64,000 bases of DNA, from positions 32,001 through 96,000 of the forward strand of contig CAWJQC010000006.1 of NCBI GenBank assembly GCA_963844965.1, in the 5' to 3' direction. The translations under genes were made by a program, and so were the position numbers. Position 1 is the stretch's first letter. Each line of letters opens with the position of its first letter. Positions 7,903 to 60,041 of this stretch are shown in pieces. Under the pieces are notes generated by a model that was not told the DNA's origin, made no database searches, and saw only the letters and a list, made by a program, of their open reading frames with translations. The stretch comes from an uncultured bacterium (GTDB lineage: Bacteria; Patescibacteriota; Minisyncoccia; UBA6257; 2-01-FULL-56-20).

Positions 7903-8657
7903 ATGCCTAAGCGCAAGTTGCAATTGTTAGTGGATCCAAATAAGTGTCTTGATATATTTGGCGCACTAAACCTCCTCGTCAGTTCACAACCGCTGTCCCT
8001 ACGCGAGCAGGAACTACTTGCAAATCTCATAAAGAATCGCGCCCGAGTACTGGAATCATTGAATCTCTTGGTCAGCCCGATAGTAATGGTACACGTCCTG
8101 CCGGGAGGAATCATGCCCAGAAGGATGACGCCAGGCGCTATTGGTTATGATGTCGGTCTAAGGGCTCTGGTTTCTCCTTGGGACATGGAAGAAGAAACTC
8201 CCCATCTGAGAAAAAAAATTGTTCGGCTTTGATTGCAGAACGTCGGAATACCCGGAAATCATGAAAAGCGTGGCTGAGATAAGAAACGAGAACGACAAAC
8301 CGGAGTTGGTGTACCGACTCCATCCGGGAAAATCGGTGACGGTGGGCGTTGGATTTGTCACCGCAATGCCGTTCCCCATGTTTTACTGGGATACTCCCCG
8401 CAGCGGATTGGCGTCAAAATGGCTCATCACGCTCGGTAATGCTCCGGGGACGGTTGACCCCGATTACCGCGGAGAGGCTGGCGTAATTGTAGTAAATAAC
8501 AGCGATAAAGTTTACGAGCTCAGACACAACATGCGCATCGCCCAAATTATCTTTACTTTCGCGCTGATTCCTAAACTCATACCGGTCGCAAAATACGAAG
8601 TATCTGCCAAAAACCATCCGCGGCGCCGGTGGCTTCGGCTCAACCGGTATGCGATAA
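7903..8657 (+). pseudogene. dut: dUTPase (dut) interrupted by two single-nucleotide frameshifts
   Basis: Motif 1 'PGAIGYDVGLRA' is in frame 1. Motifs 2-4 'PRSGLA', 'GTVDPDYRGE', 'RIAQ' are in frame 2 (ORF 8219..8665). Motif 5 'RGAGGFGSTG' is in frame 3 (8619-8657). The shifts fall in an A8 run at 8211-8218 and an A4 run at 8610-8613. Confidence 0.75.
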
Positions 8658-8726
8658 AAAATTAAGGCGGTCGCCTGAGGCGACCGCTCTTTTGTTTCCA
8701 GTGCCAAATTCTTGACTCCCCTTCCG

Positions 8727-9020
8727 TTATTTTTTCGCCGCCGCCATAAAATCCCTCATCTCCGCGACAAGCTCATCAACTATTCCGTCTCTCATCTCGT
8801 CAAGGTCGGGAATTTTATTTTCCAGAAAAGAATTTATCTTTTCGGCGTCGCCTTCTTCGGTCAGCTTGTCAAACTCCTCCTGGTCTTTTTCGTTCAGCCT
8901 GTCGTAAACACGCAAAACGAGACGCTTCAAAAGCGAGTCCGCAAGTTGCACCATAATCGCATCTTTGTCTTCCTGGGTTAAGTTCTCACCCAGCCCAAGT
9001 TCTTTTATTAAGTCCCTCAT
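8727..9020 (-). CDS. Hypothetical acidic 97 aa protein
   Basis: Clean ORF with no recognised motif. Confidence 0.45.
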   Translation of the reverse strand: MRDLIKELGLGENLTQEDKDAIMVQLADSLLKRLVLRVYDRLNEKDQEEFDKLTEEGDAEKINSFLENKIPDLDEMRDGIVDELVAEMRDFMAAAKK

Positions 9021-9073
9021 TGTTATTTTTTTATTATACCATTACCAGTTATGAAGCCACAACAAATAACCCG

Positions 9074-10057
9074 TTACATGGTCGGCATCGGCACGTTCTT
9101 GTCAACAACGTCACCGACAACCTCTCCCACTGCACACTCCTTGGCAACGCTCCACGGCATTCCCGTCCTCTTTACGGTCTCGCGAAGAGCCGCCTCAAAG
9201 ATCCCTTCTTTGTAATTCTGGACGTCTTCAACCCTCGGACCAATTCCATAGCCATAAGGACCTCCCCAGCCGCCGTAAAGACTGCCGCCTATGCCCATTC
9301 GCCCGCCCATAAAACCGCGGTAGAACATGCCCCCGCCGTATCCTGTGCCATATACTTGCGGCTGTCCAAAATCAATGACCGAAGAAGACGACTTGAGGAA
9401 ATTCTTGGCGCTGTGCAAGAAATGATGACCCAATAATTTTCCCACTTTCATATGTTTTATGGCGTCATAATCCTGGAGTGTCATGCCGACCTTATCCGTT
9501 ACTTTAATCTTATCCAAAATCTCTGTCTGGAGATATTCTACGCGCGCCCTGAAGAGCGGCGTGTTCTCAGTATCGTTCAGCATCGCTTCGTACCAATTTT
9601 TAAGCGCGTGGTTGGATGTTTTCTTGACCAACTTGGCCAATCCATCCACGGTTTGGCTCTGTTCAGAGAAACTGGCGTGCGAAAATTCGCCTTCCATGTG
9701 GTTCTGGATATTGGCCTCAAAGTAAGCGAGAGCTTCGCCGCTCAACTTATGCGCCTCGGCGGATTTCATTTGGTTGGCCACATCAACAATGCTTTGAGAT
9801 TTTGAGAAGACACCGTTCAGATAATTGTCTATCGCGGCCCTCTGTGCCGGCGCGATTCCCCTCACTGCTTCTGCAGCCGCTTCGGCATGCAGAACGGGCG
9901 CGGCTTCGGCTCCCGGCGCCGTCATTTCCGTTTGTGGCGCAACCTCGTGGAACTTCGGCAATAACCTCCATAAGTTCCATTCCTCGCCTATACGTATACG
10001 CAACTCCGGCGCACAACTGGATCTTTCGCAAAATTTCCTATAAGATGGGAGCACCAA
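9074..10057 (-). CDS. Probable C-terminal continuation of the large protein (327 aa ORF, Gly/Tyr-rich tail)
   Basis: Shares the 'H.SFSEQ.Q' motif with the upstream ORF and has a 'GTGYGGGMFYRGFMGGRMGIGGSLYGGWGGPYGYGIG' low-complexity region. Its first ~25 residues are likely out-of-frame read-through. Confidence 0.5.
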   Translation of the reverse strand: MVLPSYRKFCERSSCAPELRIRIGEEWNLWRLLPKFHEVAPQTEMTAPGAEAAPVLHAEAAAEAVRGIAPAQRAAIDNYLNGVFSKSQSIVDVANQMKSAEAHKLSGEALAYFEANIQNHMEGEFSHASFSEQSQTVDGLAKLVKKTSNHALKNWYEAMLNDTENTPLFRARVEYLQTEILDKIKVTDKVGMTLQDYDAIKHMKVGKLLGHHFLHSAKNFLKSSSSVIDFGQPQVYGTGYGGGMFYRGFMGGRMGIGGSLYGGWGGPYGYGIGPRVEDVQNYKEGIFEAALRETVKRTGMPWSVAKECAVGEVVGDVVDKNVPMPTM

Positions 10058-13054: not shown

Positions 13055-13336
13055 TTAATCTGGCGCCGCTGCCTTTCGCCCGCCTCGCAAATTCAGCGAT
13101 TTGACTTTGCGTCGCGCCGGCATCCTCAGCCGCTGCCCTAACTTCAGTCGCACCATCTTTTGCTTTTTCTCCTGATCCGGAGTAGCCTCCCTGATTCTCC
13201 TTTCAACATCACTAAGAAACTTTTCCAGTCGGCTTTCTTCCTCCAAGGTTTCGGGAGGGCGGGTGCCGCCCGCCTCGGCGGTCCCCGCTTCGTGCTTTCC
13301 TATATTGACTTTAGGTAGAAGAGGTTTTTCTTTCAT
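13055..13336 (-). CDS. Hypothetical 93 aa protein
   Basis: ORF whose ATG overlaps the TGA of the upstream small ORF (ATGA). Confidence 0.4.
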   Translation of the reverse strand: MKEKPLLPKVNIGKHEAGTAEAGGTRPPETLEEESRLEKFLSDVERRIREATPDQEKKQKMVRLKLGQRLRMPARRKVKSLNLRGGRKAAAPD

Positions 13337-13503
13337 TGAATGTTATGCGCCTTTATGCGACGCTTTATATTCTGAAGCTTAAGCTCTTTTATTTCCTCCA
13401 ATATGTCATCAATCTCCTTTTTGTGCTCCTTTTTTAGGGCATCCACTTCCTTTATGAATTCATCAAGTATTTTCTTCAGAGTCGCCAATTTATTATCAGG
13501 CAT
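13333..13503 (-). CDS. Small coiled-coil protein (56 aa, MPDNKLATLKKILDEF...)
   Basis: Not in the ORF track because it is under 60 aa. It is a clean K/E heptad-like ORF translationally coupled (ATGA) to the next gene. Confidence 0.4.
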   Translation of the reverse strand: MPDNKLATLKKILDEFIKEVDALKKEHKKEIDDILEEIKELKLQNIKRRIKAHNIQ

Positions 13504-13765
13504 TGTATGTTAATTATAGCAAATAATAAGGCGAATCTTATGTTTCAATTTATGCTTCAATTATAGCAATTATCCATCAGAATGTCAAGTTCGGCTGGTA
13601 ACACGCGCCAGCCATCTGAAAATCGTTCAAATCATCGCAGATTGTTGTCGTAATTCAATTTTGCCCGCCGAACAAACTCCGCAATGTAAAAACCGCACTT
13701 ATCGGCGGGCGCTAAAGAGAAAATATTTACTTACCGACGGATGTGGAGGTAAAATATAAGTATCA

Positions 13766-15948
13766 ATGGCAAAAAGAAACGGCAAAAAGGAACGTAAAGA
13801 AAAAAACAATAGAAATGACGCGCGGCGCGAACCGCCGCGCGAAGAACGGCTCCATCCCGACACGAAAAAAAGCATCTGGGCGATAACTTTTTTGGGTCTC
13901 GCTGTTATTTTCACCCTGGCCGCCTTCGCTAAAGCGGGACCTTTCGGCGACTTTCTGCACGGAATATTCGCAACGCTTTTCGGAGCCGGCTACTTCATGC
14001 TGCCCCTCGGCCTCACACTCGCCGCGGCCATCCTGCTCCTCACAGAAAGGCAAAGGGTCGTTGGCATTACAACGCTCGGCGCCGCGCTTATAGTTTGCTC
14101 GGCGCTCGGGCTCATAGAACTTGCCTCCGCCGGCAAGGGCGGCTGGCTCGGCCTCGTTTTCGGCTCTCTTAGATTGCCGTTCGGGACAACGGCGGCCGTG
14201 GTATTGAACATCGCGATTCTTGTAATCGGCATCCTCATTACCGTCAATATCCCACTCAAGCTCAGAAGACAGAGGAAAGATCTGGCCGCTGGCGAGGAAG
14301 GGAAAACGCTCGTGGTCACCGGCGAAGAGGCGGATGAACGACAAGAGACAGGCGGCAAAGGACAAGGGACAAGTGGCGAAAAGACAAAGGATGCGGAAAC
14401 CGAAAGAAACGCAAGTAAAGCCGAGATCGTTGAAAACGCCGCGCTCGCCGTGGAACCGAAAAAGGTCAGTCCGCCAAAATTCGCGGACTACATCCCGCCG
14501 CCACTCTCGCTCCTCAAATCCACCGGCGAGAAACCGACGACCGGCGACCTTCTCGCGAACGCCAACGTAATCAAGCGCACGCTTGATTCTTTCGGCATCG
14601 CGGTGGAAATGGGCGAAATAAACGTGGGGCCGGCCGTGACACGCTACACACTGAAACCGGCGGAGGGAATGAAGCTCTCGCGCATTGAGGCGTTGCACAA
14701 TGATCTGGCGCTGGCCTTGGCCGCGCACCCGATAAGAATAGAGGCGCCGATTCCTGGAAAATCTTTGGTTGGGATTGAAGTGCCGAACAAAGCCGCCGCG
14801 CTCGTGCGGCTCGGCAGTTTAATGACCTATCCGGAATTCCAAAAATCCGGTCCCTTGGGCTTCGTCCTCGGCCGCGACGTCTCCGGCAATCCGGTCTTCG
14901 CCGATATAGAAAAGATGCCGCACATGCTCGTCGCCGGCGCGACCGGTTCGGGAAAATCCATTCTGATACATTCGCTTCTTGTATCGCTTTTGTACAAAAA
15001 CTCACCCGCCACGCTTAAACTCATCCTCATAGACCCGAAACGCGTTGAACTTTCGGTTTACGACCATATACCGCATTTAGTGGGTCCCGTAATCATGGAA
15101 AGCAAAAAGGCGCTTGGCGTTTTCCGCTGGGCAATAAACGAAATGGAACGGAGATATGACCTACTTCTCCATGCCGGCAGCCGCGACATCAAAAGCTACA
15201 ACCAAAACGGCGGTAAGGACGAACCGCTCCCCTACCTTCTTATAGTCATAGACGAACTCGCGGATATGATGGCTTCATACGGCCGCGAAGTTGAGGGCTC
15301 AATCGTGCGTTTGGCACAGATGGCGCGGGCGACGGGCTTCATCTCATACTCTCAACGCAAAGGCCGTCGGTTGAAGTTATCACGGGGCTCATCAAGGCGA
15401 ACATCACGTCCCGCGCGGCGCTGCAGGTCGCAAGCCAAGTTGACTCACGGACAATATTGGATATGGGCGGCGCGGAAAAACTTCTGGGCCACGGCGACTT
15501 GCTTTATGTTTCTTCGGAACTTTCAAAACCCAAGAGAATCCAGGGCTCTTACATCACGGAGGAAGAGATAAATAAGGTGGCGGACTTCATACGCGACAAC
15601 AACATCCCGGACATAACCGGAATGACCAGCTTCGCGCCTGCCGCGGATTCGGAGCCAGACGAGAAAGGCGGGGGCGGAATGTTTGATGAATACCTTGAAG
15701 ATGAGGATGACGAACTGTATGATGAGGCGGTTGAAGTCGTGCGCGAGGCGAAAAAAGCATCGGCTTCGCTCCTCCAGCGGCGGCTCAAGGTCGGCTATGC
15801 CCGGGCCGCGCGGCTTCTGGACATTATGGAGGGGCGCGGCATTATCGGGCCGGGCGAAGGCGCGAAACCACGGGATGTTTATTTAGAAAAAATACCTGGA
15901 GGCCATGACGCCACCGGCTACGGAAACGAAGCCGGCGAAGAAGAATGA
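13766..15948 (+). CDS. ftsK: DNA translocase FtsK/SpoIIIE, split by one frameshift near 15334-15340
   Basis: N-terminal TM helices, Walker A 'GATGSGKS', and 'RLAQMARATG' are present. After 'acgggcttc' the canonical 'HLILSTQRPSVEVITGLIKANI...LDMGGAEKLLGHGDLLY' and gamma domain continue in another frame (ORF 15457..15948). The likely cause is a g deleted from a G-run. Confidence 0.85.
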
Positions 15949-16081
15949 AAGGTGTCACAATGAATCCCGTTAGAAGCCGCGATCGCTAAATGCAATATAT
16001 CAATTTTTATAGAATGGATAATTGTTTCCGTAAGTTAATAAATTCTTGTGGGTCGCTGATCGCGAATCTGCTTCTAACGGG

Positions 16082-16771
16082 ATGAACCCCGAAGATAACT
16101 TGGAAAATCTCGATTTTGCGCAATTTTTGCGCGGGCGACTAAAAGAACGTGGATTCAATCTGAAAAAACTTTCGGAAGTTTCCGGTGTCTCCGCAAAGCA
16201 TCTGGAAGCGCTCGCATCCGGCAATTTCCAGCATCTTCCTTCAGCCCCCTACTTCCGCGGATATGTAGCGCGCCTCGGGCAAATTCTGGATTTTGACGGC
16301 GAGTTCTGGTGGAAAAAACTGAGGGAGGCCGAATCGGTAAAGAGTTCGGAAAAAAGCGACGAGCCGTCCGAAAACAGATTCGTGCGCGCGAAGAACAAAA
16401 AAATCGCGGCGTGGATCGCTGCCGCGGCGCTGATGATAATTTTATTTTTCGGATTCGGGCTCGCGAGAATATCCGGCAAGCCAGTCATAAAAATCACAAG
16501 TCCTTCGGGAAATCCGGCAATCGTGGACACCGCTCAAATTGACATCACGGGTACCCTGAAAAACGCGAGCGAACTTTACGTGAACGGCGAACTCGTAAAT
16601 CCGAGCCCGGACGGCTCATGGACCAAAACTGTTCTCTTGGGCGCCGGCGCCAATTCGTTTGAAATCCTCGCCAAAAAATTCCTCGGCGGCGAAACGAAGA
16701 TCGTAGAGCAGATCATTTATGAACCGCCGGCCACAACAACGACTTCAACCGTTGGCTTGAATCTGAGATAG
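16082..16771 (+). CDS. RodZ-like protein (XRE-type HTH, TM helix, C-terminal domain)
   Basis: HTH 'LKKLSEVSGVSAKHLEALASG' followed by a single TM helix 'IAAWIAAAALMIILFFGFGL'. Start chosen at MNPEDN (16082). Confidence 0.55.
   Translation: MNPEDNLENLDFAQFLRGRLKERGFNLKKLSEVSGVSAKHLEALASGNFQHLPSAPYFRGYVARLGQILDFDGEFWWKKLREAESVKSSEKSDEPSENRFVRAKNKKIAAWIAAAALMIILFFGFGLARISGKPVIKITSPSGNPAIVDTAQIDITGTLKNASELYVNGELVNPSPDGSWTKTVLLGAGANSFEILAKKFLGGETKIVEQIIYEPPATTTTSTVGLNLR
16651..16732 (+). repeat. Direct repeat copy 1 (3' end of the RodZ-like gene)
   Basis: Core 16673-16727 'aaaaaattcctcggcggcgaaacgaagatcgtagagcagatcatttatgaacc' recurs at 18576-18630 with about six mismatches. Confidence 0.7.
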
Positions 16772-16796: not shown

Positions 16797-18530
16797 ATGA
16801 AACAGGCGGGGCAACTATTAATATTTTCCATTTTACTACTTTTGGCGGTAGGAAGTTTCGCGCGCGCGCAATCCGCGGACACCATCCCCCCGTCGGTTCC
16901 GACCGGCGTTACCGCGACCGTTCTTCCCGGCTTGCAAGTTCAGGTTTCCTGGACCGCATCAACTGACAATGTCGGCGTCGCCGGGTATTACGTTTACCGG
17001 AACGGCATGCTCATCGGCAGTACCTCAGATCTGACGTTCACCGATAAGGTGCCGTTTCAGGGATTATATTCCTACACCGTTTCCGCTTATGACGCGGCCG
17101 GGAATCTGTCGCCAAACCAATCACTTCCTTCCAGCATCGTAACAGTTGCGAGCGATACGACGCCTCCTTCCGTTCCCGCCAGCCTCGCGGTAACAACGAT
17201 AACCAGTTCATCCATCACCATTTCCTGGGCCGCGTCAACGGATAATGTCGGCGTCGCCGGATATTACGTTTACCGGAACGGCAGCCGGCTCGTCATCTCC
17301 ACATCAAGCGCCCTCACAGCGACAACCTATACCGACTCCGGACTCACTTGGGGCACCACCTACATCTATACCGTCGCCGCTTACGACGCATCGGGAAATA
17401 TTTCCAGTCAGTCAAGTCCGGTCACCGCGACCACAATATCCGACATCTATCCCCCCTCAACCCCGTTCCTTCTCTCAGCCACCACAAAATCGTCCGGCGA
17501 AATTGATATCACCTGGAGTCCTTCAACCGACAATGTCGGTGTGGCGGGATACTATATATACCGAGGCGGAAGTCAGATTGCGGCCGTTTCATCCACCCCA
17601 CTCGCCTACAAAGATACAGGCCTTTCCGCCGGAACCGATTATTCCTATTATATTGCCGCCTACGACGCAGCGGGAAATATTTCTCTGGACAGCAATTCGC
17701 TGGACACGACGACATTTCCTCCGGACACTATACCGCCATCAATGCCGGACGGCTTCACGGCCAAGGCCGTTTCCGCGTCGCAAATTCAGTTGAGCTGGAT
17801 GCCAGCATCGGACAACGTCGGCGTCGCCGGATATCATCTTTATAGAAGCGGCGGCCAACTCCCCAATTCCACCACCACTTTCAGCAGCAACAGCCAAATT
17901 TTAGACACCACATCCACTTCCTACATGGATACCGGCCTCGCTTCCGATACAATATACGTCTACGCGGTAGAGGCCTACGATGCAGCAGGAAATCTTTCGC
18001 CGCAATCCACCGTCACCGCGACGACACTTTCGTCTGGAACGATTGCCCCCACGACTACGTCGCCCGCTGTTACGAGCAATCCCACCGCCGTGAATCCACC
18101 AGCGACAACGGCTCCGACCGTCACGGCCACGGCACCCGCAAATAATGCCGCCGTTTTTACAACAACTTTATATATTGGACTGCGCAGCGATGAAGTGAAA
18201 ACTTTGCAGTCATTTTTAATACAGGAAGGTTATCTCGCGGCGGGAAATGACACGGGATTTTTCGGACAACTGACCCAGAGCGCGGTTCAGAAATTCCAGT
18301 GCGACCAGAACATTGTTTGCTCCGGCGATCCGCAGAGCACCGGCTGGGGATTGGTCGGCGCAAAAACGAGAAGCGCACTGAACGCGCTCTATTCCGCTCC
18401 CACTTCCGCGCAAGCGCCCGCCGCGAGCGGCGGCGCTCCATCAGTGGCACAGCTGCAGGCGCAAATTCAATCGCTTGAAGCGCTATTGCAATCGCTTGAA
18501 GCACAACTCAACAACCAAAACGCGAAATAG
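16797..18530 (+). CDS. Secreted protein with four FN3 domains, a peptidoglycan-binding domain and a coiled-coil tail (577 aa)
   Basis: Signal peptide. The 'W.ASTDNVGVAGYY.YR.G' FN3 module occurs four times. PG_binding_1-like 'LQSFLIQEGYLA...GFFGQLTQSAVQKFQ'. C-terminal 'QLQAQIQSLEALLQSLEAQL'. Confidence 0.8.
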   Translation: MKQAGQLLIFSILLLLAVGSFARAQSADTIPPSVPTGVTATVLPGLQVQVSWTASTDNVGVAGYYVYRNGMLIGSTSDLTFTDKVPFQGLYSYTVSAYDAAGNLSPNQSLPSSIVTVASDTTPPSVPASLAVTTITSSSITISWAASTDNVGVAGYYVYRNGSRLVISTSSALTATTYTDSGLTWGTTYIYTVAAYDASGNISSQSSPVTATTISDIYPPSTPFLLSATTKSSGEIDITWSPSTDNVGVAGYYIYRGGSQIAAVSSTPLAYKDTGLSAGTDYSYYIAAYDAAGNISLDSNSLDTTTFPPDTIPPSMPDGFTAKAVSASQIQLSWMPASDNVGVAGYHLYRSGGQLPNSTTTFSSNSQILDTTSTSYMDTGLASDTIYVYAVEAYDAAGNLSPQSTVTATTLSSGTIAPTTTSPAVTSNPTAVNPPATTAPTVTATAPANNAAVFTTTLYIGLRSDEVKTLQSFLIQEGYLAAGNDTGFFGQLTQSAVQKFQCDQNIVCSGDPQSTGWGLVGAKTRSALNALYSAPTSAQAPAASGGAPSVAQLQAQIQSLEALLQSLEAQLNNQNAK

Positions 18531-18552
18531 CAGGAGTTTCTCGGCTCAAACG

Positions 18553-18635
18553 CAAATTCCCTTGAGATCGGCGCGAAAAAATTCCTCGGCGGCGAAACGA
18601 AAATCATTGAGCAGATTATTTGCGAACCAACGGCG
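18553..18635 (+). repeat. Direct repeat copy 2 (non-coding duplicate of the RodZ-like 3' end)
   Basis: '...gcgaaaaaattcctcggcggcgaaacgaaaatcattgagcagattatttgcgaacc' lies directly after the FN3 gene stop. Confidence 0.7.
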
Positions 18636-18714
18636 ACATCTGCCACACCTTTCGGCCAAAATCCATAACCGCATAATTGTTTGAGAGGGTCGCGGAAGGA
18701 ATGAAAAACTGCCG

Positions 18715-19329: not shown

Positions 19330-20432
19330 ATGGTTCAAGCCGCCGCTCCAAAAAAATCCAAAGAAGGTACGCCGCAAAGTAAAGAAGAAAATCAAAAGCA
19401 GCTAGATAATCTTCTCTCTTCGCTCCAGGAAAAATACGGCGAAGGAGCGATTATGAAATTGGGCGAAGCGCGCAAAGTTGACGTGGCGGTCGTGCCAACC
19501 GGCTCGTTTTCGCTGGATATGGCGCTTGGCGTCGGCGGCTTGCCTCGCGGGAGAATTATTGAAATCTTCGGGCCGGAGATGAGCGGGAAAACCACACTCG
19601 CCTTGAATGTCGTCGCGCAGGCGCAAAAACAAGGCGGTAAAGCGGCTTTCATTGACGCCGAGCATGCCCTGGACCCGGAATATGCCGCTAAGCTCGGCGT
19701 GAAAGTCAATGAACTTTTGATATCGCAACCCGACAACGGCGAAGAAGCGCTGAATATTCTGGAAAGCCTGGTCAGGTCGGAGATGATTTCCGTTGTTGTC
19801 GTGGACTCCGTCGCCGCGCTCACGCCAAAAGCGGAACTTGAAGGAGAGATGGGCGAACAACATGTCGGGCGGCAGGCAAGGATGATGGGCCAAGCCATCA
19901 GAAAGCTGACAGCAATCGCCGCGAAGACGCAAACGATGGTGATTTTTATAAACCAGCTGAGGATGAAAATAGGGATAATGTTCGGCAATCCCGAAACGAC
20001 GCCGGGGGGGATGGCCTTGAAGTTCGCCGCCTCCGTCCGCATTGACGTCCGCCGCATGGCCCAGGTCAAAAAAGGAGAAGAGGTTGTCGGCAACCGCGTC
20101 AAGGCAAAAGTCGTTAAAAACAAAGTCGCGCCGCCGTTCAAGCTCGCGGAGTTTGACATTATGTTCAGCGAAGGAATTTCCTATGAAGCCGATGTGCTGA
20201 ACGCCGGGATAAGATACGGAGTCATCAAAAAATCCGGCGCGAGTTACGGCTTTTCCGCCCAAGGCGGATCCGCCTCTGGCGGAGAGACGATAAAATTGGG
20301 CACGGCTTTGATAATGTCCGCCTGAAGCTGAAAGAGGACAAGAAATTACTGAACGAGATCAAAAAGAAAGTGACGGAGACAGCGAAAACAGGAGTGATAG
20401 CGGCGAAGAGCGAAAAGGGAGAGGAAGAATAA
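19330..20432 (+). CDS. recA: RecA recombinase carrying a 30 bp palindromic in-frame insertion plus a frame change near its C-terminus
   Basis: Walker A '[10 protein letters not shown]' and the L2-region motif '[25 protein letters not shown]' are present. After 'KKSGASYGF' comes the insert '[10 protein letters not shown]'. The acidic C-terminus '[29 protein letters not shown]...EKGEEE*' is then in another frame, ending at 20430-20432. Confidence 0.85.
20254..20283. repeat. Coding-palindrome element copy E1 (in recA)
   Basis: tccgcccaaggcggatccgcctctggcgga, with 13 bp inverted ends 'tccgcc.a.ggcg' and 'cgcct.tggcgga'. It contains GGATCC. Confidence 0.8.
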
Positions 20433-26343: not shown

Positions 26344-26418
26344 GAACTATACATGCGAATTATGCGAAAGGGATTCGCAGCATTCGCATATACATTCGCG
26401 GCATTCGCATTATGTTTT

Positions 26419-46787: not shown

Positions 46788-46960
46788 AAACAAAAATACT
46801 CGCTCCTTGTGAGCGGGTGTTTTTGTTTCTTGTAAAATGGTCTGGCGGAATTGAACGAGGGGTGGGCCGGAGGGGAAACTCGGTGTCCCCTCCGTGTAGG
46901 AAATTACTCAAAACCGAGGGTTGTGAGAGAGCGAGTTGCTGTATAGCGACTCGCGACGTG

Positions 46961-46980
46961 AAATTCCGCCCATCTCCACA
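46961..46980 (+). repeat. Direct repeat of the tmRNA 3' end, about 180 bp downstream of ssrA
   Basis: 'aattccgcccatctccac' is identical to tmRNA positions 46767-46784. Confidence 0.7.
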
Positions 46981-47186
46981 TAACCAGAATTGAACTTTAG
47001 AAAACCCTCCAGAAGGGTTGAAAAATCTAGCCCGACCCTGATTTTTTCTTGGTTTTCCATTTTGCGTTTTTGAAACAGTATCACGCGAGGGAGTGAATAT
47101 AAAAAAAACCGACACCTATTAGTGCCGGTTGTAAAGGATAGGTTTCTTTAGACAGTGATTCGACGGCTTTTTGCCGTTTTTTTTCG

Positions 47187-47969
47187 TTAAGCCGCAATCT
47201 TCTCGGCAAACACGGACGGCGGCATCTTGAGGGCGGAGTGGATCCGCGTGTGGTTGTACTGCCACAAGGTGCTGTAGATCTCCGCCACGAGCTCGCCGAA
47301 GGTCCCGAACCGGTTGGGATCACCGAGGTCAATCTTGAACTTGTCATAGAACGATTCCTGGTAGCCGTTTTCCCATGGGGCACCGGGCCGCGACCGCGAG
47401 ATCGTGATGCCACAGTCCCCCAGTGTATCGGTGAACGCTCGTGCCTTGTACTCGCTGCCGTTGTCCGAATGGAAGATGACCGGATGCGGATGGTGGAAAA
47501 GCGCGTTGGCCAGGGTCTGTATCGTGAGGGGCGATCCTTTCCGCAACGCCACATGGACGCCCATCAATCGTCTCGTGAAAAGATCGAGTATCGTGGACAC
47601 GTACACTTTCTTGCCGCGATACAGGAACTCCGTGAAATCGGTTGCCCAGACGTGGTTCGCGTACGAGGGCATGATGGCAAGTAAGAGGTTCGGAAAGGCC
47701 CGCGATGCCTTTGATTTCCGGTATTTCCTGCCTCGCCTCCGGTACGGCCTTATGCCGAAGATTCGCATGACGCGCTGCGCTCGCGGACGGCTCACGCCCA
47801 GAGCTTGTCCCAAGCGCCGGGAACCGTATGCCGGATGGCGCTGCAATTCTTCTTCCATGCGGATCTTGAGCGCCCAATCTTTCTTGTCCTGCCGTGATAC
47901 GTAGTAGAGCGATGCCCGCGAGACGCCCATGGCCCGCGCCATGGCGGACTTGTTCCGCTTTTCCGTCAA
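47187..47969 (-). CDS. IS3 transposase OrfB (rve integrase core, DDE)
   Basis: 'HSDNGSEY' integrase-core motif. It has a TTG start and is normally made as an OrfAB fusion. Confidence 0.8.
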   Translation of the reverse strand: MTEKRNKSAMARAMGVSRASLYYVSRQDKKDWALKIRMEEELQRHPAYGSRRLGQALGVSRPRAQRVMRIFGIRPYRRRGRKYRKSKASRAFPNLLLAIMPSYANHVWATDFTEFLYRGKKVYVSTILDLFTRRLMGVHVALRKGSPLTIQTLANALFHHPHPVIFHSDNGSEYKARAFTDTLGDCGITISRSRPGAPWENGYQESFYDKFKIDLGDPNRFGTFGELVAEIYSTLWQYNHTRIHSALKMPPSVFAEKIAA

Positions 47970-48229
47970 TTCTTTTTTTGGGCCTGGGAGAGCTTCACGG
48001 TGAGCTCGCCCACCACTTCAAACAGCTCCCTGTTCTGCTTCTGGAGACGGCTGAACTCGCCCCAGGAAGGGACGCCCGATGCTCCTGCGCCTAGCCAATT
48101 GTAGATGGTGGACTCGTGCAAACCGTGGTCCTTCGCAGCCTGCGCTACGGGGACTCCTTCTTCCTTCACCCGGCGGAGGATGTCCGCCTTCACTTCCTTC
48201 GCAATCCGATGCCCTTTTTTGTTGCTCAT
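47966..48229 (-). CDS. IS3 transposase OrfA (HTH)
   Basis: 'GVPVAQAAKDHGLHESTIYNW' HTH. It ends '...AQKKN*' across the A7G site. Confidence 0.75.
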   Translation of the reverse strand: MSNKKGHRIAKEVKADILRRVKEEGVPVAQAAKDHGLHESTIYNWLGAGASGVPSWGEFSRLQKQNRELFEVVGELTVKLSQAQKKN

Positions 48230-48257
48230 GACACAATGGTAGTTTGTTTCGACCTTT

Positions 48258-48467
48258 GTGTCTAAATTATCCTATCCGGGTCAAAGCTTCAAGATTCGCC
48301 CACCGGTCTTTATACCAATTTATAATAACAGCAATAAATTACACAAACAGTTATCAGAACTCTCCAAGGAGGCTCATAAAAACTATTCCAATGAAAAAGT
48401 TATTGCCGAAATCGACCAAGAGATAAACGAAGTTTACTTGAAAGTTTGCCAGCAAGAAAATAAATAG
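48258..48467 (+). CDS. Small AT-rich hypothetical ORF (69 aa) upstream of the recombinase
   Basis: ORF only. It partly overlaps the IS right end. Confidence 0.25.
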   Translation: MSKLSYPGQSFKIRPPVFIPIYNNSNKLHKQLSELSKEAHKNYSNEKVIAEIDQEINEVYLKVCQQENK

Positions 48468-48529
48468 CAATGAAAATACTCTTATAACTCTTCGAAGAAA
48501 TGATGGGGATACTTAATTTAAACTAAGCC

Positions 48530-50041
48530 ATGAAAGCAATAATCTTATCTCGCGTATCAACGAAAGAGCAGGCCGATGAGGGGCAATCCATACCAGCGCA
48601 AACGGGACGGCTCACTGAATACGTTAATAAAAAACAACTTGATCATTGGAAGGTTTTTGAGATCGCCGAAAGTTCTACGCACGATACAAGGAAAAAGTTT
48701 GATAAGGTTTTGGAGCTTATTAAGAAATCGCACGAGCCGCTTGCGCTTGTGGTTGAAACCGTTGACCGGCTGCAGCGGAGCTTTAAGGAAAGCGTTATTT
48801 TGGACGATCTGCGCAAAGAAGGCAAAGTTGAAATCCACTTTGTCCGCGAGGGCTTGATATTAACGAAGGATTCGAACAGCGCCCAGCTTTTACAATGGGA
48901 TATGGGCGTGATGTTTGCCCGCAGCTACGTTTTGCAATTAAGCGATAACGTGAAGCGCAGCAATGAGCAGAAACTGAAGAACGGCGAATGGATAAGCAAA
49001 GCGCCGATAGGTTATCGAAATATCAGGGATGAAAACGACAAGCCGGATATAGAAGTTGACCCCGAAGCATCGCCTTTTATCGTCAAGGTTTTCGAGCGCT
49101 ACGCCACTGGCAATTACTCGATGATTACGTTGGCCAAACAGATGCGCGAAGAAGGTTTTACCGGAAAACAACACGGCAATCCGATCACCGTTAGCCAGAT
49201 AGAGCGCATACTTAAAAATTCTTTTTACTACGGCGTTATGGAGGTTCACGGCAAACAATATCAGCACCGCTACCCACCGCTTATCTCAATGCACCTGTTT
49301 TTGAAATGCCGCAAGGTTATAGAAAGTTGGAATAAAAAACCGTTTCAACACGCCGCGAGGCCATTTATCTTTCGAGGTATCCTATCGTGTGCAACCTGCG
49401 GTTGCGCCATTACCGCAGAAATGGCAAAGGGCAAGTATATTTATTATCATTGCACGAATTTCAGGGGTATATGCGAGAAGGTATACGTGCCCGAAAAAGA
49501 CCTTTTAAAGCCCATAAAACGCTATCTGCGCAAGTTTGTGCTGCCGCAGGAAGGAATTGACTACGTTGTCGGTAAACTACGCACAACGACAGAAATCGAG
49601 CAGGAATACCACAATCAGGCGATGGCTACCCTAAAAGCCGAATATGACCGCTACGAGGCCAGAATCAGCAAAATGACCGATGACAAATACGACGGCAGTA
49701 TTACGCCCGAAATCTACGACAAAAAATTGAAAGAGTATAAGGCAAAGCAGGCCGACTTATTGAATCAGATGCAGGATCACAGCAAAGCCGACGAGCAGCA
49801 TCACCTTACGGCTACGAAATTACTTGATGTTTGCAAACGCGCCGATTCAATCTTCGAAAGTTCTGAACCGGCTGAAAAACGGCAATTTTTGAATTTCGTA
49901 TTTCAGAACTCGACGCTAAACCGAAATAAGCCAATGTTTATGCTGAAACCCGTGTTTGCGGGCATAGTAAAAGCGCACGAAACTCATAAATGGGGTGCCT
50001 ATCGGGATTCGAACCCGAGCCGAGAGTGCCACAGACTCTAG
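48530..50041 (+). CDS. Large serine recombinase (resolvase N-domain, recombinase domain, zinc ribbon)
   Basis: 'AIILSRVSTKEQ' catalytic Ser region and a Cys cluster 'CATCGCAITAE...YYHC'. The last ~17 codons run antisense through tRNA-His. Confidence 0.85.
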   Translation: MKAIILSRVSTKEQADEGQSIPAQTGRLTEYVNKKQLDHWKVFEIAESSTHDTRKKFDKVLELIKKSHEPLALVVETVDRLQRSFKESVILDDLRKEGKVEIHFVREGLILTKDSNSAQLLQWDMGVMFARSYVLQLSDNVKRSNEQKLKNGEWISKAPIGYRNIRDENDKPDIEVDPEASPFIVKVFERYATGNYSMITLAKQMREEGFTGKQHGNPITVSQIERILKNSFYYGVMEVHGKQYQHRYPPLISMHLFLKCRKVIESWNKKPFQHAARPFIFRGILSCATCGCAITAEMAKGKYIYYHCTNFRGICEKVYVPEKDLLKPIKRYLRKFVLPQEGIDYVVGKLRTTTEIEQEYHNQAMATLKAEYDRYEARISKMTDDKYDGSITPEIYDKKLKEYKAKQADLLNQMQDHSKADEQHHLTATKLLDVCKRADSIFESSEPAEKRQFLNFVFQNSTLNRNKPMFMLKPVFAGIVKAHETHKWGAYRDSNPSRECHRL

Positions 50042-50064
50042 TGCTGCCGTTACACCATAGGCAC
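49990..50064 (-). tRNA. tRNA-His (GTG) with encoded G-1 and CCA
   Basis: 8-bp acceptor GGTGCCTA/TAGGCACC. Anticodon stem AGAGT/ACTCT with loop CTGTGGC. T-arm CTCGG-GTTCGAAT-CCCGA. Confidence 0.8.
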
Positions 50065-51799: not shown

Positions 51800-53801
51800 A
51801 TGGCCAGTAATGTAAAGAAAGCATTTGAGGAAGCTGGAATTGATGTTCCCGAAGTTCCCACCTCCGGCATCGCCGGAACGGAAACGACGGTACCACCTTC
51901 TGCTCCGGCGGACGCAACTGCAACCGCTACAACACCGGCACCTTCCGTACCAGCAGCTACCGACACCACACCAACTGCCGACAAACAACCAGTTGTTCTT
52001 TCTTTCGGCAGAGTTGACCGGGAAGCCGCTGCCAAACTCCGCGAGCAGAAGAAGACGGAATTGGAAGCAATCCCGTCCTTCGTCGCGGAACTCGTTGTCT
52101 TGCTCAAGAACCCCCGCGAAGAGACCATACTGTCTATGACCGACGGCACCGAGCGTTCGCTCACCCTCGAAGAATTCGAGGCATACATCGCCACCGTCGT
52201 AAACGGGACCCAGCATCGCGGCGTCCGCCAATCGTTTACAACTGCCGTCGTGGAACAGATGTTGGGGCAATTTCCACCGTCTGATCATCTGTTCGGCGTC
52301 GCGTTCACGAGGGTTTCAACAGCGCTAACAGATACCGACGGAAGGGGCTTTTTCTTCGAAGTAGAGAAGGATTGGGCCCTGAAGAACCCCGGCAACGTAA
52401 TCTGGATGTACAGGAGCGACGGGAGCGGCAAGGCGCCGTTCGCCTCGGTCGCACCGGACTCCACTCGTCTCATGATTGCCACCAAAAAGTGGCTGGACGA
52501 GATTGAGCGGGCGGAGAAATCCCGCATCAAAACCGGGACCAAGCCGTTCCTAGAAGCGTTTTACCAGGGCGGGGAAACCGCTTTCTTCCTCAAGAAGAAG
52601 GAGATTCCCCGCAGGGACGGCGGCACTATAATCCGAAAGGCCGGTCACTTCCGCATTCACATCGAAGACGGCAAAAACGGGAGAATCCGCCCAGTGGAGG
52701 CACTGGAATCGCCTCACCACGACCTGTTTGAGGAAATGACCTCTCGCAGGGAGTGGGTATCAATCGGCGTCCTAGCGCCGGAAATCGTCGGCGCCGACCC
52801 GGAAAATAGGCAGAAAATGATCGCCGCCTATTTCCGGGACGTGGAGAACTATGAGCAGCGCAAGCGGTTCATCCGTTTCGCGCACATCATAATCGATGGC
52901 TACATCGACGCCCTGGCATCCGAGAAGAAGGCGGCCGAGGCGCACGAAGGTGGCCGAGAAGCCGGTACCTGCGGCCAAAACTGCCGAAACCAAACCCACC
53001 GGAGAGCACCGTGATTCGGCAAAAGCCGATTACATGAAGCTCGAGGAGCTGAAGCGGAGGGGGGGATACATTTCCTCGCGAAGCTTCATGCTCGACCGCA
53101 AGCCGGGCGTGGCTCTCTTCTCCGCGAAAACGGAGGAGAAGCCATCTCGCCACAAGAACAATCGTGGCGAGATGGTTGTTATCCCTGCGCTCATGGTGCG
53201 GGACAGCAGCGGCAAGAAAGTCGCCGTCTACCACAGGCTCGGTGCCGCGCTGGAACAGAACGAGAAAGGGGAGATTCGCATGATTGATTGCATCCCCTCT
53301 AACGCAAAACTTTTCGCTCCGCTCAAGGAATTTATCACCCCGGGCGAGAAGTTTGCGAATATTCCGGAGCCAGCCGCTGCCGCTCTGCGGAAGTTCTACG
53401 GCCACGAAGCTGGAGACAAGTGGAAGGACAGCTTGCGGGAAAAGCGGGCGGCACAAGCGGCACAAAATGCCGCTGGCCAGCCAGCAACTACCCCCACCCC
53501 TCCACCCGAAGCCGCGCCATCACCTGCCGCCGACAATACAATCAACACGACTGCGGCGGACGAAACAGCGGCGACGGAAGCCAATACCGCTACGGGGGAG
53601 GCTAGCCCGACCATGGAGGAGGCCCGGGAGCCACAACCGGAAGTGGGATCTGCCGAAGTTGCTCTGACACCGCCGGTGGAAGCCACCGAGGTGATGTCGG
53701 GCAACGACACGTTGTCTGCGGCGCCGATAAAACTCGACGAAGGACGAAGGCGCCGTCGGGACAATAACCGCCGGCACCAGCAGCGCGGTCTGGCGGCGTA
53801 A
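51800..53801 (+). CDS. Hypothetical ~670 aa protein (Thr/Pro/Ala-rich linkers), apparently frameshifted near 52940-52950
   Basis: ORFs 51740..53014 and 52896..53801 overlap. Both turn to low-complexity read-through at 'gaaggtggccgagaagccg', so a single-nucleotide shift would join '...AEAHE' to 'VAEKPVPAAKTAETKP...'. Confidence 0.5.
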
Positions 53802-54799: not shown

Positions 54800-55075
54800 A
54801 TGACCGACGAGCTTATAAAACAATTGAAGGACGCGGGGTTCCCGCTCCACAAGGAAGCGGGCGCAACGCGGCCGCCCACGCTATCCGAACTTATCGCGGC
54901 GTGCAGCAAAGGTTTTTGGAGCTTGCGCCGGACGCCGGAGGACAAATGGCTCGCCTCCGGCCATTTTTCCGCGAAAGAAGGCCAAATTCCTTACTATGAA
55001 TCGGTCGCGTATGACGAACCGGAGGTAGCGGTCGCGGAACTGTACTTGGCAATAAAGCTGTATGAATCAGAGTAA
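54800..55075 (+). CDS. Hypothetical 91 aa protein
   Basis: ORF only. Confidence 0.4.
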   Translation: MTDELIKQLKDAGFPLHKEAGATRPPTLSELIAACSKGFWSLRRTPEDKWLASGHFSAKEGQIPYYESVAYDEPEVAVAELYLAIKLYESE

Positions 55076-55511
55076 GTGCGGAAACGAACCCACTCAACAA
55101 ACTTGGGGCAGGATGGAAGCTTCGCGCGGCCACGCCGTAGCCGTACTTATAATTACGCCGCAGGGGATACCACTGATACGCGATCCCAAAAAACCTCCGC
55201 CGGTTTTTTGGAAAGCGCCGGGAGGACGCAGCGACGCGAGCGAAACGGCAAAAAGCGCCGCGGTGCGCGAGGTGCGCGAAGAAATCGGCGCGAAACTTTC
55301 CGAAAATGACCTCGCGATTGTTTCCGAAGAAGACAGAGATTCGCACATTCTCACGCTCTTTGCGGCCAAACTTCCGTCTTTGCCCGCTATAAAAGACCGT
55401 GGCGACGAAGGCGAAGAGATCCGCATATTTTCTCCGAGCGAAATTCTTGCCATGCACGATTTCTTCCCAAATCACAGGAAAGTATATGAAAAAACACTCA
55501 AGGCTCTATAG
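55062..55511 (+). CDS. NUDIX hydrolase
   Basis: 'APGGRSDASETAKSAAVREVREEIG' Nudix box. An alternative start is at 55113 (MEASRG). Confidence 0.7.
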   Translation: MNQSKCGNEPTQQTWGRMEASRGHAVAVLIITPQGIPLIRDPKKPPPVFWKAPGGRSDASETAKSAAVREVREEIGAKLSENDLAIVSEEDRDSHILTLFAAKLPSLPAIKDRGDEGEEIRIFSPSEILAMHDFFPNHRKVYEKTLKAL

Positions 55512-58797: not shown

Positions 58798-58829
58798 CCG
58801 CACCAAAGAAGGACTTGGTGAGTCATCTT

Positions 58830-58900
58830 GCGGGCGTAGTATAGCGGCAATACGTCACCCTTCCAAGGTGAAGTCGTGGGTTCAACTCCCATCGCCCGCT
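58830..58900 (+). tRNA. tRNA-Gly (TCC)
   Basis: Acceptor GCGGGCG/CGCCCGC. Anticodon stem TCACC/GGTGA with loop CTTCCAA. T-arm GTGGG-TTCAACT-CCCAT. Confidence 0.85.
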
Positions 58901-58944
58901 CACAAAACGCAAGCAGTCCTTCTTATGGTGACAGGGCAAGCAAC

Positions 58945-58977
58945 ATACGGCGGTTCGACTCCGCTCACCCGCTCAGA
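58945..58977 (+). other. tRNA 3'-half-like fragment (T-arm + acceptor CACCCGC) downstream of tRNA-Gly
   Basis: 'AC GGCGG TTCGACT CCGCT CACCCGC TCA'. Its acceptor strand is exactly complementary to GCGGGTG in the upstream fragment. Confidence 0.45.
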
Positions 58978-59010
58978 AGAAGGGGGTTGGGGGATAATTA
59001 CCACGCAAAC

Positions 59011-59481
59011 ATGATTAGGTGCACATTTGAAAACGGCAGTGAGGCCTTCATGCGGCACACCGTAGTAGACACCATCGTGCTTAAGGACGGCAAGGTCCTT
59101 TTGGTCAAGAGAGCAAAAAAATTTCTTGAGGGCGGCAAATGGGCGCTTGTCGGAGGATTTATGGAAAAGAACTAAACTATCAAGGAGGCGGTGGCGCGGG
59201 AGGTCCTTGAAGAGACGGGGTATGAGGTGGGCGGCATTACCCTGTTCCGCATAATCGATAATCCCAATCATCCGGGCGAGGACAGGCAAAATGTTTGTTT
59301 TGTCCACTACTGCAACGCCCTCAAAAAAACCGGCGCGCCGGATTTGGAAAATGATGAACAACGGTGGTTTTCTTTTTCAGAACTGCCGCCCAAAGACGAA
59401 ATGGCCTTTGATCACCTGGAAGATATTTGCCTCTATCGGGAGTACACCGAGAAACCCCTCATTTTACCGAGAATCGGATAA
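59011..59481 (+). pseudogene. NUDIX hydrolase with an in-frame TAA at the conserved Nudix-box Glu codon
   Basis: 'GGFMEKN*TIKEAVAREVLEETGY' spans ORFs 58876..59175 and 59191..59481 in the same frame. The TAA (59173-59175) sits where GX5EX7REUXEEXGU expects GAA. Confidence 0.6.
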
Positions 59482-59545
59482 TGTTTTCTGCTATAATCTA
59501 TAAATAAAGAAGTTAACGAAAACGAAAGTCGCCAAACAAACTACC

Positions 59546-60041
59546 ATGGACATATTCGCTTCGGTTAAGGACGTTATGATAAAGAAGGTGGTAACCGCCG
59601 CGTCTGACACGCCGCTGATTGAGGCCGTAAACCGCATGCTGGCCAACAAGTATCTCCGGGCTTCCTGTGGTTGATAAGAACAACAAAGTTATCGGGATTG
59701 TCACTGAATACGACATAACGACGAAAGGATCTCTCGCGAATCTAACGACGTATGTGAGGCTTCTGCAAGAGTCGCGTGTGTACAAGCACGGACACGAGGA
59801 AGATTCTATTTTGGGCAGCATAAAAAGGGTGCTAAGCGCAACCGTGGGCCAAGTAATGAATCCCGAGCCGTTGGTCTTGAAACAAGATGCCTCCATCAAT
59901 CAGGCGGTGCAGACATTTGTTGAACACCACAGCGTAAACCCGATACCGATCGTTGACGACGCCGGCAAGCTGGTCGGCGTTTTAAGCAGGCACGACCTCA
60001 TAAAACTTTTTTATATTTCATCCGTTCGTCCCGGCAAGTAG
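59546..60041 (+). CDS. CBS-domain pair protein, frameshifted near 59655
   Basis: 'MDIFASVKDVMIKKVVTAASDTPLIEAVNRMLANK' then shifts (tatctccggg) into 'SGLPVVDKNNKVIGIVTEYDI...' with a second CBS 'VNPIPIVDDAGKLVGVLSRHDL'. Confidence 0.6.

Follow-up and report, generated by a model that had tools for sequence, protein, structure and literature searches.

One-base frameshifts in conserved genes of a CPR contig: probably consensus errors for the most part, with a minority that may be genuine

Introduction

The stretch of DNA analysed here (64,000 nucleotides, hereafter the window) is metagenome-assembled, Paceibacteria-type CPR DNA with a GC content of 0.51, in which about 10 of about 60 genes are interrupted, core genes among them. 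The question raised by this locus is whether the breaks record a genome in decay or a consensus sequence with residual errors. A sequence-only reading had listed ten single-nucleotide frameshifts, placed them mostly at homopolymers and preferred homopolymer sequencing error to genuine pseudogenisation as their cause. We mapped the breaks against homologues, compared them with other read sets of the same strain, and weighed the possible causes.

Results

Inventory of the lesions

The interrupted genes are as follows.

7903–8654, + strand: dut (dUTPase, about 250 aa once repaired), two +1 lesions seen in the sequence, the ORFs and Pfam
13766–15948, + strand: ftsK, one base missing at 15334–15337 (GGG, intact GGGG) and an adjacent C>T at 15339
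19330–20432, + strand: recA, one base missing at 20304–20305 (CACGG-CTTT), last ~40 aa replaced
20835–21909, − strand: conserved membrane protein (357 aa once repaired), one extra base within about 21578–21604, in a CCC/AAAA/TTT/CCC stretch
22966–25135, − strand: pnp (PNPase, 724 aa once repaired), two missing bases
26419–26683, − strand: rpsO (S15, 88 aa once repaired), one G missing at 26621–26622
29093–30819, − strand: Cys-rich repeat protein with a terminal T4SS-pilin domain, base missing at about 29983–29992 (gene strand GTATTTGTACG)
51800–53801, + strand: hypothetical protein (about 670 aa once joined), one extra base at about 52930–52960
59011–59481, + strand: Nudix hydrolase gene, in-frame TAA at 59173–59175
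59546–60041, + strand: CBS-pair protein (164 aa once repaired), one extra base at about 59650–59651, no homopolymer

All ten frameshifts of the sequence-only reading are present in the sequence, as is evident from tblastn junctions, split Pfam families and three-frame views. Its coordinates hold for the most part; two were 20–25 nt off, since the recA lesion, placed near 20285, lies at 20304–20305, and the second pnp lesion, placed at 23410, lies at 23431–23437 (about 25 nt away). The site given as A4 at 8610 in dut is a run of A5 at 8609–8613, which should be A4. Two lesions were absent from that list, namely the missing base in the T4SS-pilin-like gene and the in-frame TAA in the Nudix gene. 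Overall, about 11 one-base indels in 64 kb, or one per ~6 kb, break nine genes. All 11 frameshifts are 1-nt: dut A8, dut A5 and those of the membrane, hypothetical and CBS proteins shift by +1 base, and those of ftsK, recA, pnp (both), rpsO and the T4SS-pilin-like gene by −1. The pair 54800–55075 and 55062–55511, considered as a further frameshift, was rejected, being two separate genes. All tRNAs and the tmRNA in the window have normal scores.

Junctions, where consecutive query segments fall in different frames, were mapped by tblastn with the ORFs of 80 syntenic Patescibacteria loci, which came from a scan of genome contigs with recA. They lie at 15334–15340 in ftsK (111 junctions), 26619–26631 in rpsO (37 junctions), 23200–23253 (68) and 23417–23444 (103) in pnp, 20257–20296 in recA, and 21578–21751 in the membrane protein gene, whose homologues match the N- and C-terminal parts in frames −2 and −3. 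According to Pfam, FtsK_SpoIIIE and FtsK_gamma are in different frames, the RNase_PH, KH and S1 domains of pnp are split over three, positions 51–113 of the dUTPase profile fall in the second dut piece, the rpsO piece carries S15 profile positions 21–80 only, and the CBS family is split, the three-frame view of this gene reading MLANK|ISGLPVVD.

In pnp, three HSPs in frames −1, −3 and −2 have 71–88% identity to homologues; the first lesion (23246–23250) reads GGGCC on the gene strand, where an added C restores GGGCCC, and the second overlaps GATC. The three-frame view of the membrane protein gene shows a TM helix that carries on in the other frame. The repeat units CTSET.PIC...CSSNSQCAAAYSNAPYC of the Cys-rich protein likewise continue in the other frame, into the ORF at 29093–29659, and its C-terminal piece matches PF18895 T4SS_pilin. 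For the hypothetical protein, the coding-frame track switches at 52940, and the sole distant homologue, P0258 (567 aa), is colinear with ORF1 (residues 86–347) and then ORF2 (398–510).

The earlier observation that conserved motifs carry on in the other frame was borne out, with homologue identity equal on both sides of the breaks (65/71% in ftsK, 74/76% in rpsO, 71/78/82% by segment in pnp) and invariant residues kept. Repaired dut aligns with 9 homologues across LRKK|LFGF and AK|TIRGAGGFGSTG with every invariant residue in place, the homologues reading LRKTLF in one frame, and the repaired recA tail matches the homologue consensus. Decay was looked for in the broken genes as extra stops, deletions and lost conserved residues, and none was seen.

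Intact alleles in other read sets

The same strain (at least 99.9% nucleotide identity) was found in the Logan assemblies of two runs, SRR18214601 and ERR10755942, of which SRR18214601 covers just 2.1 kb of the window. An ERR10755942 contig (L085) carries an intact ftsK of 727 aa (P0125) and differs from the window over 13284–16061 by one indel and two SNPs in 2779 bp (G4 versus G3, a neighbouring SNP and one further SNP); both the deletion and the C>T are inside a GGGCTC site of the intact allele. A contig of SRR18214601 (L084) encodes exactly the repaired RpsO protein (P0121), and its one difference from window positions 26070–27120, in 1052 bp, is the rpsO run, G3 versus G2: the gene strand of the window reads ACGG-CTCC, and the intact form ACGGGCTCC contains GGGCTC. 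Since other reads from this strain yield intact alleles, the ftsK and rpsO breaks are specific to this assembly, so that 2 of the 11 frameshifts are directly contradicted by other data.

Both pnp lesion sites fall outside the Logan contigs, the dut A5 site falls outside the contigs of both runs, and ERR10755942 contig L087 ends exactly at 59649, adjoining the CBS lesion. In all, six lesion sites lie beyond the contigs of the two runs. Independent DNA over the membrane protein lesion was not found. The genome-contig scan with recA returned relatives at 69–89% amino acid identity only and no second assembly of the species. The strain is absent from the JGI metagenome contigs, since scans with a pnp 30-mer and the dut A7/A8 site gave 0 matches. 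A chimeric protein query (pnp, CBS, Nudix, membrane, hypothetical, pilin and dut C-terminal segments) gave a list swamped by pnp homologues; because near-identical proteins were absent from this list, independent versions of the queried sites were not found. Exact look-up in the protein collection of repaired recA, dut, pnp (2 variants), membrane, CBS and Nudix proteins found none of them, look-ups of neighbouring genes turned up nothing, and a literature search on the two run accessions gave no match. We infer that both pnp lesions, those of the membrane, pilin-like, hypothetical and CBS proteins, and dut A5 belong to the same class of error as the contradicted ones.

Lesions shared with other assemblies

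The first dut lesion, A8 at 8211–8218 where A7 is expected, is reproduced in the Logan contigs of both ERR10755942 and SRR18214601, that is, in three assemblies including the window. For this reason it is the lesion least likely to be an assembly error, and it may be a real mutation. It is also the sole lesion in a long homopolymer. Within dut, the one isolated SNP between the window and a Logan contig (8302) is synonymous once the frame is repaired. A search with full-length repaired dut gave a best match of 65% identity and no near-identical intact dut.

The recA lesion, which replaces part of the RecA C-terminal domain, is identical in ERR10755942 contig L086 (P0123), the only one of the other runs to carry it, and a search with the recA C-terminus found no intact near-identical recA. 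This lesion is best read as a shared systematic error. The Nudix lesion is a substitution rather than an indel and the only in-frame stop of the set; its TAA occupies the first Glu of the Nudix box GX5EX7REUXEEXGU (GAA>TAA). Contig L087 of ERR10755942 is identical to the window including the TAA (0 differences over 2009 bp), no second run has the TAA, and two further Nudix genes are present in the window. The TAA is perhaps a real mutation. It should be noted that sharing a lesion with ERR10755942 is not independent confirmation, because the same chemistry or even the same reads may underlie both; should ERR10755942 instead consist of accurate short reads, the majority of the lesions tested would have to be real.

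Sequence context of the lesions

The claim that the lesions are mostly at homopolymers proved weak: the notable runs are A8 and A5 only, and the rest are in runs of 1–4 bases, which are ubiquitous, so that 9 of 11 lesions lie in runs of at most 4. Only 1 of 173 long runs (A/T ≥6, G/C ≥5) coincides with a lesion, and some 130 long runs within coding sequence keep the frame, e.g., A8 at 41089 and G7 at 20004 and 53059. The error rate thus does not rise with homopolymer length as classically predicted. With so few long homopolymers affected, the platform evidently resolves runs of up to 8, and its errors would be context-specific.

Three of the six deletions restore GRGCYC (simulation P = 0.003, for a motif chosen post hoc), and the rpsO and recA lesions have in common the context CACGG-CT, found at only 6 places in the window. 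An unbiased enrichment scan of 3–5-mers in the lesion contexts gave nothing that survives multiple testing, and most intact motif copies in the window (34 GRGCYC, 148 GATC) are error-free. A systematic deletion at every ACGGGCT was rejected, as 11 intact copies remain. Events that combine an indel with a neighbouring substitution occur in ftsK and at 5366–5368.

Nanopore base-calling is systematically wrong at methylated motifs. Three of the five differences between ERR10755942 and the window are inside GGCGCC or GATC (P ~ 10−4), and 5 of 14 ERR10755942 contig ends are at these motifs; at all three motif differences, it is the window that keeps the ORF or conserved residue. ERR10755942 therefore looks like nanopore reads of methylated DNA and does not make a clean control. 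Motif-linked artefacts are absent from SRR18214601.

Discussion

Taken together, the data suggest that sequencing error is probably the main cause of the breaks, in the form of residual one-base errors of an unpolished or low-coverage long-read consensus, while a minority may be genuine. The intact alleles, the undecayed downstream frames and the implausibility of such a burst of broken genes all argue for technical error at most sites; the burst of about 10 broken genes among about 60 is implausible because the intact relatives are only ~0.02% diverged. The platform behind the window is most likely nanopore. The lesions fall in short G/C runs and partly at contexts that resemble methylated restriction–modification motifs (GRGCYC, GATC and also CACGGGCT), and nanopore base-calling at such candidate methylated contexts could lead to systematic one-base consensus errors. 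Of the explanation offered by the sequence-only reading, technical error thus stands for most sites, and homopolymer length as its driver falls away. Genuine pseudogenisation, its stated alternative, may apply to a minority of sites (dut, perhaps the Nudix TAA, and recA with lower likelihood) and is very unlikely for most. Against the error reading, it should be mentioned that dut A8, the recA lesion and the Nudix TAA are reproduced elsewhere and that dut and pnp carry two lesions each, as real pseudogenes do.

These last observations bear on how much of the set might be real. It is plausible, if not quite probable, that most lesions are errors and some are real mutations at the population level, in functions that are dispensable, reflecting recent gene decay in a CPR lineage; within that same possibility, the genuine subset would consist of dut (replication slippage from A7 to A8, perhaps followed by a second hit at A5), the Nudix paralogue (through GAA>TAA) and possibly the C-terminal tail of recA. 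The three assemblies that show the A8 draw on at least two read sets, of which SRR18214601 is artefact-free at the motifs and corrects rpsO; the TAA and the recA lesion recur identically in ERR10755942 contigs; the window holds two other Nudix genes; dut is hit twice; and the platform resolved other A7–A8 runs correctly. The functions concerned (dut, the Nudix paralogue and the recA tail) are dispensable in model bacteria, which also counts in favour. However, ERR10755942 resembles the same error-prone chemistry and may be the contig's own source reads, the recA lesion has the context of the proven rpsO error, decay is nil downstream of any lesion, and SRR18214601 covers only its 2.1 kb. Extending genuine pseudogenisation to all or most lesions, as in a reductive and drifting genome, would suit the small genomes and host-dependent lifestyles of CPR bacteria, the number of lesions with two genes hit twice, and the three lesions common to another assembly, but is very unlikely: ftsK and rpsO are intact in almost identical DNA, there are no large deletions, conserved residues are kept, the Nudix TAA is the only in-frame stop, and the lesions appear specific to sequence context. 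Moreover, if rpsO, pnp, ftsK and recA had all been lost within ~0.02% divergence, more than 100 fresh knock-outs would be expected per genome.

Unlikely to a marked degree is a chimeric consensus, in which the assembler threaded minor frameshifted alleles truly present in co-existing strains. Some microdiversity is evident from SNPs that separate the window from the Logan contigs (8302, 14745, 20056), and one contig breaks at 59649, right at the CBS lesion; yet a population is expected to carry frameshift alleles of essential genes at very low frequency, indels and isolated SNPs occur at about 1:1, a ratio far above natural variation, and two of the apparent SNPs adjoin indels or sit in motifs, like base-calling artefacts. 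Programmed recoding, by ribosomal frameshifting or transcriptional slippage that restores the frames, is barely credible as a general explanation. RNA polymerase slippage or a +1 slip of tRNA-Lys could restore the frame on poly(A) runs, and the dut A8 site (AGA AAA AAA A TTG) is reproducible in three assemblies, but the other sites need both shift directions and lack slippery heptamers (e.g., the sites ACG|GCT and GAT|CCG), share no motif, and lie in genes whose homologues specify these proteins from a single frame; in dut, A5 would have to be corrected as well, and the sole canonical programmed site in the window is the A7G of an IS3 element. Confined to dut, the idea is a long shot: A8 would be genuine and fixed in the CPR population, functional dUTPase would be made only from A7-slipped transcripts or by +1 ribosomal slippage on AAA-A, and an assembly error would account for A5, 400 nt further on.

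The main value of consensus error as the preferred reading lies in quality control, as about one gene in six on the contig would be mis-called through one-base errors, and gene content, pseudogene counts and claims of 'reductive evolution' drawn from this MAG would be inflated. Two cautions follow, namely that homopolymer length is not a reliable guide to errors here, and that a second assembly from the same chemistry is not independent evidence, ERR10755942 having motif-specific errors of its own. Lesions in dut (A8), recA or the Nudix gene (TAA) that prove real would represent ordinary recent gene decay or, for dut, a modestly interesting dependence on slippage, which, if true, would make dut a housekeeping gene that relies on slippage in a free-environment CPR bacterium whose genome is not AT-rich.

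Comparison with known systems

Pseudogenes are known from reductive genomes such as those of Mycobacterium leprae and recent insect symbionts. The window resembles these in that conserved genes of a host-dependent lineage with a small genome carry frameshifts and, in one case, a nonsense codon, with two lesions each in two genes; unlike them, it shows no accompanying decay, intact alleles occur in near-identical strains, core genes are affected and the lesions appear context-specific. Frameshifts in poly(A) tracts of endosymbionts, reportedly described by Tamas et al. 2008, are said to be rescued by transcriptional slippage on tracts of A9–A10 or longer. The dut lesion similarly adds one base to an A run, recurs across assemblies and leaves the frame beyond it perfectly preserved, but the run is shorter (A8), the genome is not AT-rich (GC 0.51), and the gene has a second lesion.

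GATC and GRGCYC are examples of bacterial restriction–modification motifs (PMC11649196). No methyltransferase was identified in the window and the GRGCYC link is post hoc, unlike nanopore errors tied to established methylation motifs; in common with such errors, the window lesions restore GRGCYC or overlap GATC, and the ERR10755942 contigs depart from the window mainly within the palindromes GGCGCC and GATC. Frameshifting consensus indels are documented in nanopore MAGs, especially below ~40x coverage (PMC9262707). As in the nanopore-only genomes and MAGs of Sereika et al. 2022 (PMC9262707), one-base indels fragment the calls of otherwise intact conserved genes and are fixed in accurate reads of the same organism, and the density of about one per 6 kb fits a low-coverage bin. 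The classical form of these indels is tied to long homopolymers, whereas here the long runs are almost all correct; the pattern of lesions in runs of 1–4 bases fits newer chemistry or methylation-related errors better than the old homopolymer compression, on a platform that we infer.

Position and sign of the frameshifts

We queried the window by tblastn with every translated ORF from 80 syntenic loci. Single homologues match neighbouring window segments in differing frames with contiguous query coordinates; the split families were confirmed by Pfam, and the site and sign of each shift were fixed from three-frame views.

One-base frameshifts in the window, with tblastn junctions
dut: one base extra at each of two sites, A8 8211–8218 and A5 8609–8613
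ftsK: one base missing, 15334–15337 (GACGGGCTTC); junction 15334–15340 (111 junctions)
recA: one base missing, 20304–20305 (CACGGCTTT); junction 20257–20296
Membrane protein (20835–21909, minus strand): one base extra, ~21578–21604; junction 21578–21751
pnp: one base missing at each of two sites, 23246–23250 and 23431–23437; junctions 23200–23253 (68 junctions) and 23417–23444 (103 junctions)
rpsO: one base missing, 26621–26622; junction 26619–26631 (37 junctions)
Hypothetical (51800–53801, plus strand): one base extra, ~52930–52960
CBS gene (59546–60041, plus strand): one base extra, ~59650

Both ORFs of the hypothetical align in order with the sole homologue found, a distant protein of 567 aa, and dut with its frame restored in silico aligns through both junctions with nine homologues, none of the invariant residues being lost, motif V RGAGGFGSTG included. 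The tblastn, Pfam, three-frame and homologue-alignment evidence thus establishes that all ten frameshifts of the sequence-only reading exist, with its positions for recA (20285) and one pnp site (23410) being off by 20–25 nt.

A crude codon-usage frame tracker, together with sequence inspection, yielded two additional lesions:

29093–30819, minus strand: Cys-rich tandem-repeat protein gene, one base missing at ~29983–29992
59011–59481, plus strand: Nudix hydrolase gene, in-frame TAA at 59173–59175 (GAA>TAA), exactly in place of the Nudix box's first conserved Glu

The Cys-rich repeats continue in a different frame, which leads to a terminal T4SS_pilin domain; this gene stands first in a row of pilin paralogues at 27707–29659. 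About 10 of the ~60 genes in the window are broken.

Homopolymer runs

The shifts had been attributed to homopolymer error, which the run counts do not support: one of 173 long runs (A/T ≥6, G/C ≥5; ~130 within coding DNA) coincides with a lesion, the A8 of dut, and nine of the 11 frameshifts fall in runs of 1–4 bases, an uninformative run length. The A8 at 41089 and the G7 runs at 20004 (inside recA) and 53059 are in frame despite their length. The pattern is not that of a length-dependent homopolymer error process.

Comparison with assemblies of the same strain

Exact-protein look-ups led to Logan assemblies of two sequencing runs with the same strain, SRR18214601 and ERR10755942, nine contigs of which span 19.2 kb of the window at 99.9–100% identity. 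At rpsO, contig L084 (SRR18214601) has ACGGGCTCC versus ACGG-CTCC in the window, one base apart over 1052 bp, and its product is exactly the repaired S15 (P0121); at ftsK, L085 (ERR10755942) has GGGGCTCC versus GGG-CTTC and encodes an intact 727-aa FtsK (P0125). The recA lesion is also borne by L086 (ERR10755942; protein P0123, 331 aa), and L087 from the same run equals the window over 2009 bp, Nudix TAA included, with its end at 59649 coinciding exactly with the CBS lesion. The dut A5, both pnp, membrane protein, pilin and hypothetical sites lie outside these contigs, and further searches found no near-identical intact version of any of them.

Over 18.2 kb, five differences separate the ERR10755942 contigs from the window, three of them inside palindromes:

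5366–5368, GGCGCC: Logan indel plus substitution that at once terminates the 1617-aa ORF; SH3-repeat pattern intact in the window
14745, GGCGCC (motif 14743): Logan GGTGCC, changing the conserved Ala of FtsK RIEAPIPGK to Val
55185, GATC (motif 55182): Logan GATACC, breaking a Nudix gene; window copy intact with a full Pfam match

The window has the sensible version in all three. Since GGCGCC and GATC with 2 nt on each side occupy 2.3% of the window, finding three of five differences there has P ~ 1e-4. Five of the 14 contig ends of this run also lie at these motifs, at GGCGCC (8625, motif 8622; 9913, motif 9915) and at GATC (16061, motif 16058; 20354, motif 20357; 25883, motif 25878). When methylated DNA is read by nanopore, indels paired with substitutions arise at particular motifs, and assembly graphs break at palindromes of the restriction-modification type. 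Examples of such motifs are given in PMC11649196. The clustering of differences and contig ends, as expected from methylated DNA, suggests that ERR10755942 should be treated as nanopore-like data, and also that GGCGCC and GATC carry methylation in this organism; the run possibly supplied the reads from which the window contig was built. Its agreement on recA and the Nudix TAA, which the window shares with it alone, is therefore not platform-independent confirmation. In the 2.1 kb covered by SRR18214601, no motif-linked behaviour was seen.

Sequence context of the lesions

The rpsO and recA lesions have CACGG-CT in common. This 7-mer occurs only six times, counting both strands, and CACGGGCT remains intact in three copies. 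The rpsO lesion is window-specific, so the recA lesion in this shared context probably stems from the same systematic error. A deletion at every ACGGGCT was ruled out, the motif not being universally affected. Repair restores GRGCYC in three of six deletions, re-forming GGGCTC in rpsO and ftsK, as the Logan sequence confirms for both genes, and GGGCCC in pnp; a simulation gave P = 0.003 for this motif, which was chosen post hoc. The missing G and an adjacent C>T in ftsK both fall within the GGGCTC site; of the two pnp lesions, the second overlaps a GATC. No k-mer reached significance in an unbiased scan of the lesion contexts before repair.

Gene content of the window

GC content is ~0.51 along the entire window, and recA and its neighbours have 69–89% aa identity to Patescibacteria MAGs (Paceibacterota, Parcubacteria, 'Liptonbacteria'), with conserved gene order. 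The gene set is typical for CPR bacteria: ftsK, recA, pnp, rpsO, gyrA, ftsH, tyrS, clpP, smpB and ddl, together with the T4SS-pilin paralogue row, the 1617-aa surface protein, nine tRNAs and a tmRNA. Further features are as follows:

555–992: IS200-type tnpA (Y1_Tnp)
7903–8070, plus strand: N-terminal extension of dut, ~55 aa, accompanied by an insert between motifs I and II; both in some Patescibacteria homologues only (P0001, P0003)
18537–18665, plus strand: short stretch like the C-terminal ~30–40 aa of the protein family encoded at 16046–16771, directly 3' of the fn3/PG_binding gene 16797–18530
46471–50064: in order, tmRNA gene, IS3 element, 503-aa large serine recombinase (48530–50041), tRNA-His (49991–50064, minus strand)
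47187–48271, minus strand: IS3-family element, orfA (HTH_Tnp_1) and orfB (rve) overlapping at CCC AAA AAA G
47972–47979, minus strand: its A7G, a natural programmed −1 frameshift site and no error
58905–58975, plus strand: second tRNA-like 3' half (GGTTCGACTCCGCTCACCCGCTCA) abutting tRNA-Gly (58830–58901) on its 3' side, with no call by ARAGORN or Rfam

The 18537–18665 stretch may be a gene remnant or duplication scar, and 46471–50064 may represent a small mobile element that has integrated.

Origin of the lesions

Were most lesions real pseudogenes, each genome would by extrapolation carry over 100 fresh knock-outs, rpsO, pnp, ftsK and recA among them. We do not favour this reading: intact ftsK and rpsO are known in otherwise almost identical DNA, identity to homologues is equal before and after each shift, the conserved residues are all retained, and frameshifts and isolated SNPs between assemblies stand at ~1:1. 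Programmed recoding is likewise not favoured, as shifts are needed in both directions at sites with neither slippery heptamers nor a common motif, and the A7G at the IS3 orfA/orfB overlap is the sole canonical programmed site in the window.

Sequencing error, as first proposed, is the likely explanation for most sites, by a mechanism other than homopolymer length, and a minority of lesions may be true. The pseudogene alternative perhaps survives for dut A8 and the Nudix TAA. The A8 is as in the window in contigs of both runs (L082, L083). Recurring in SRR18214601 as well as ERR10755942, on a platform that otherwise resolves A7–A8 runs, it is of all the lesions the strongest candidate for a true A7>A8 slippage event. 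A true nonsense mutation may also underlie the Nudix TAA, which is a substitution rather than an indel and is present in two assemblies. Both dut and this Nudix gene are plausibly dispensable.

Taken together, the finding is a matter of data quality and of low biological interest. Consensus indels in nanopore MAGs are known to result in frameshifted gene calls, with bins below ~40x coverage needing polishing (PMC9262707).
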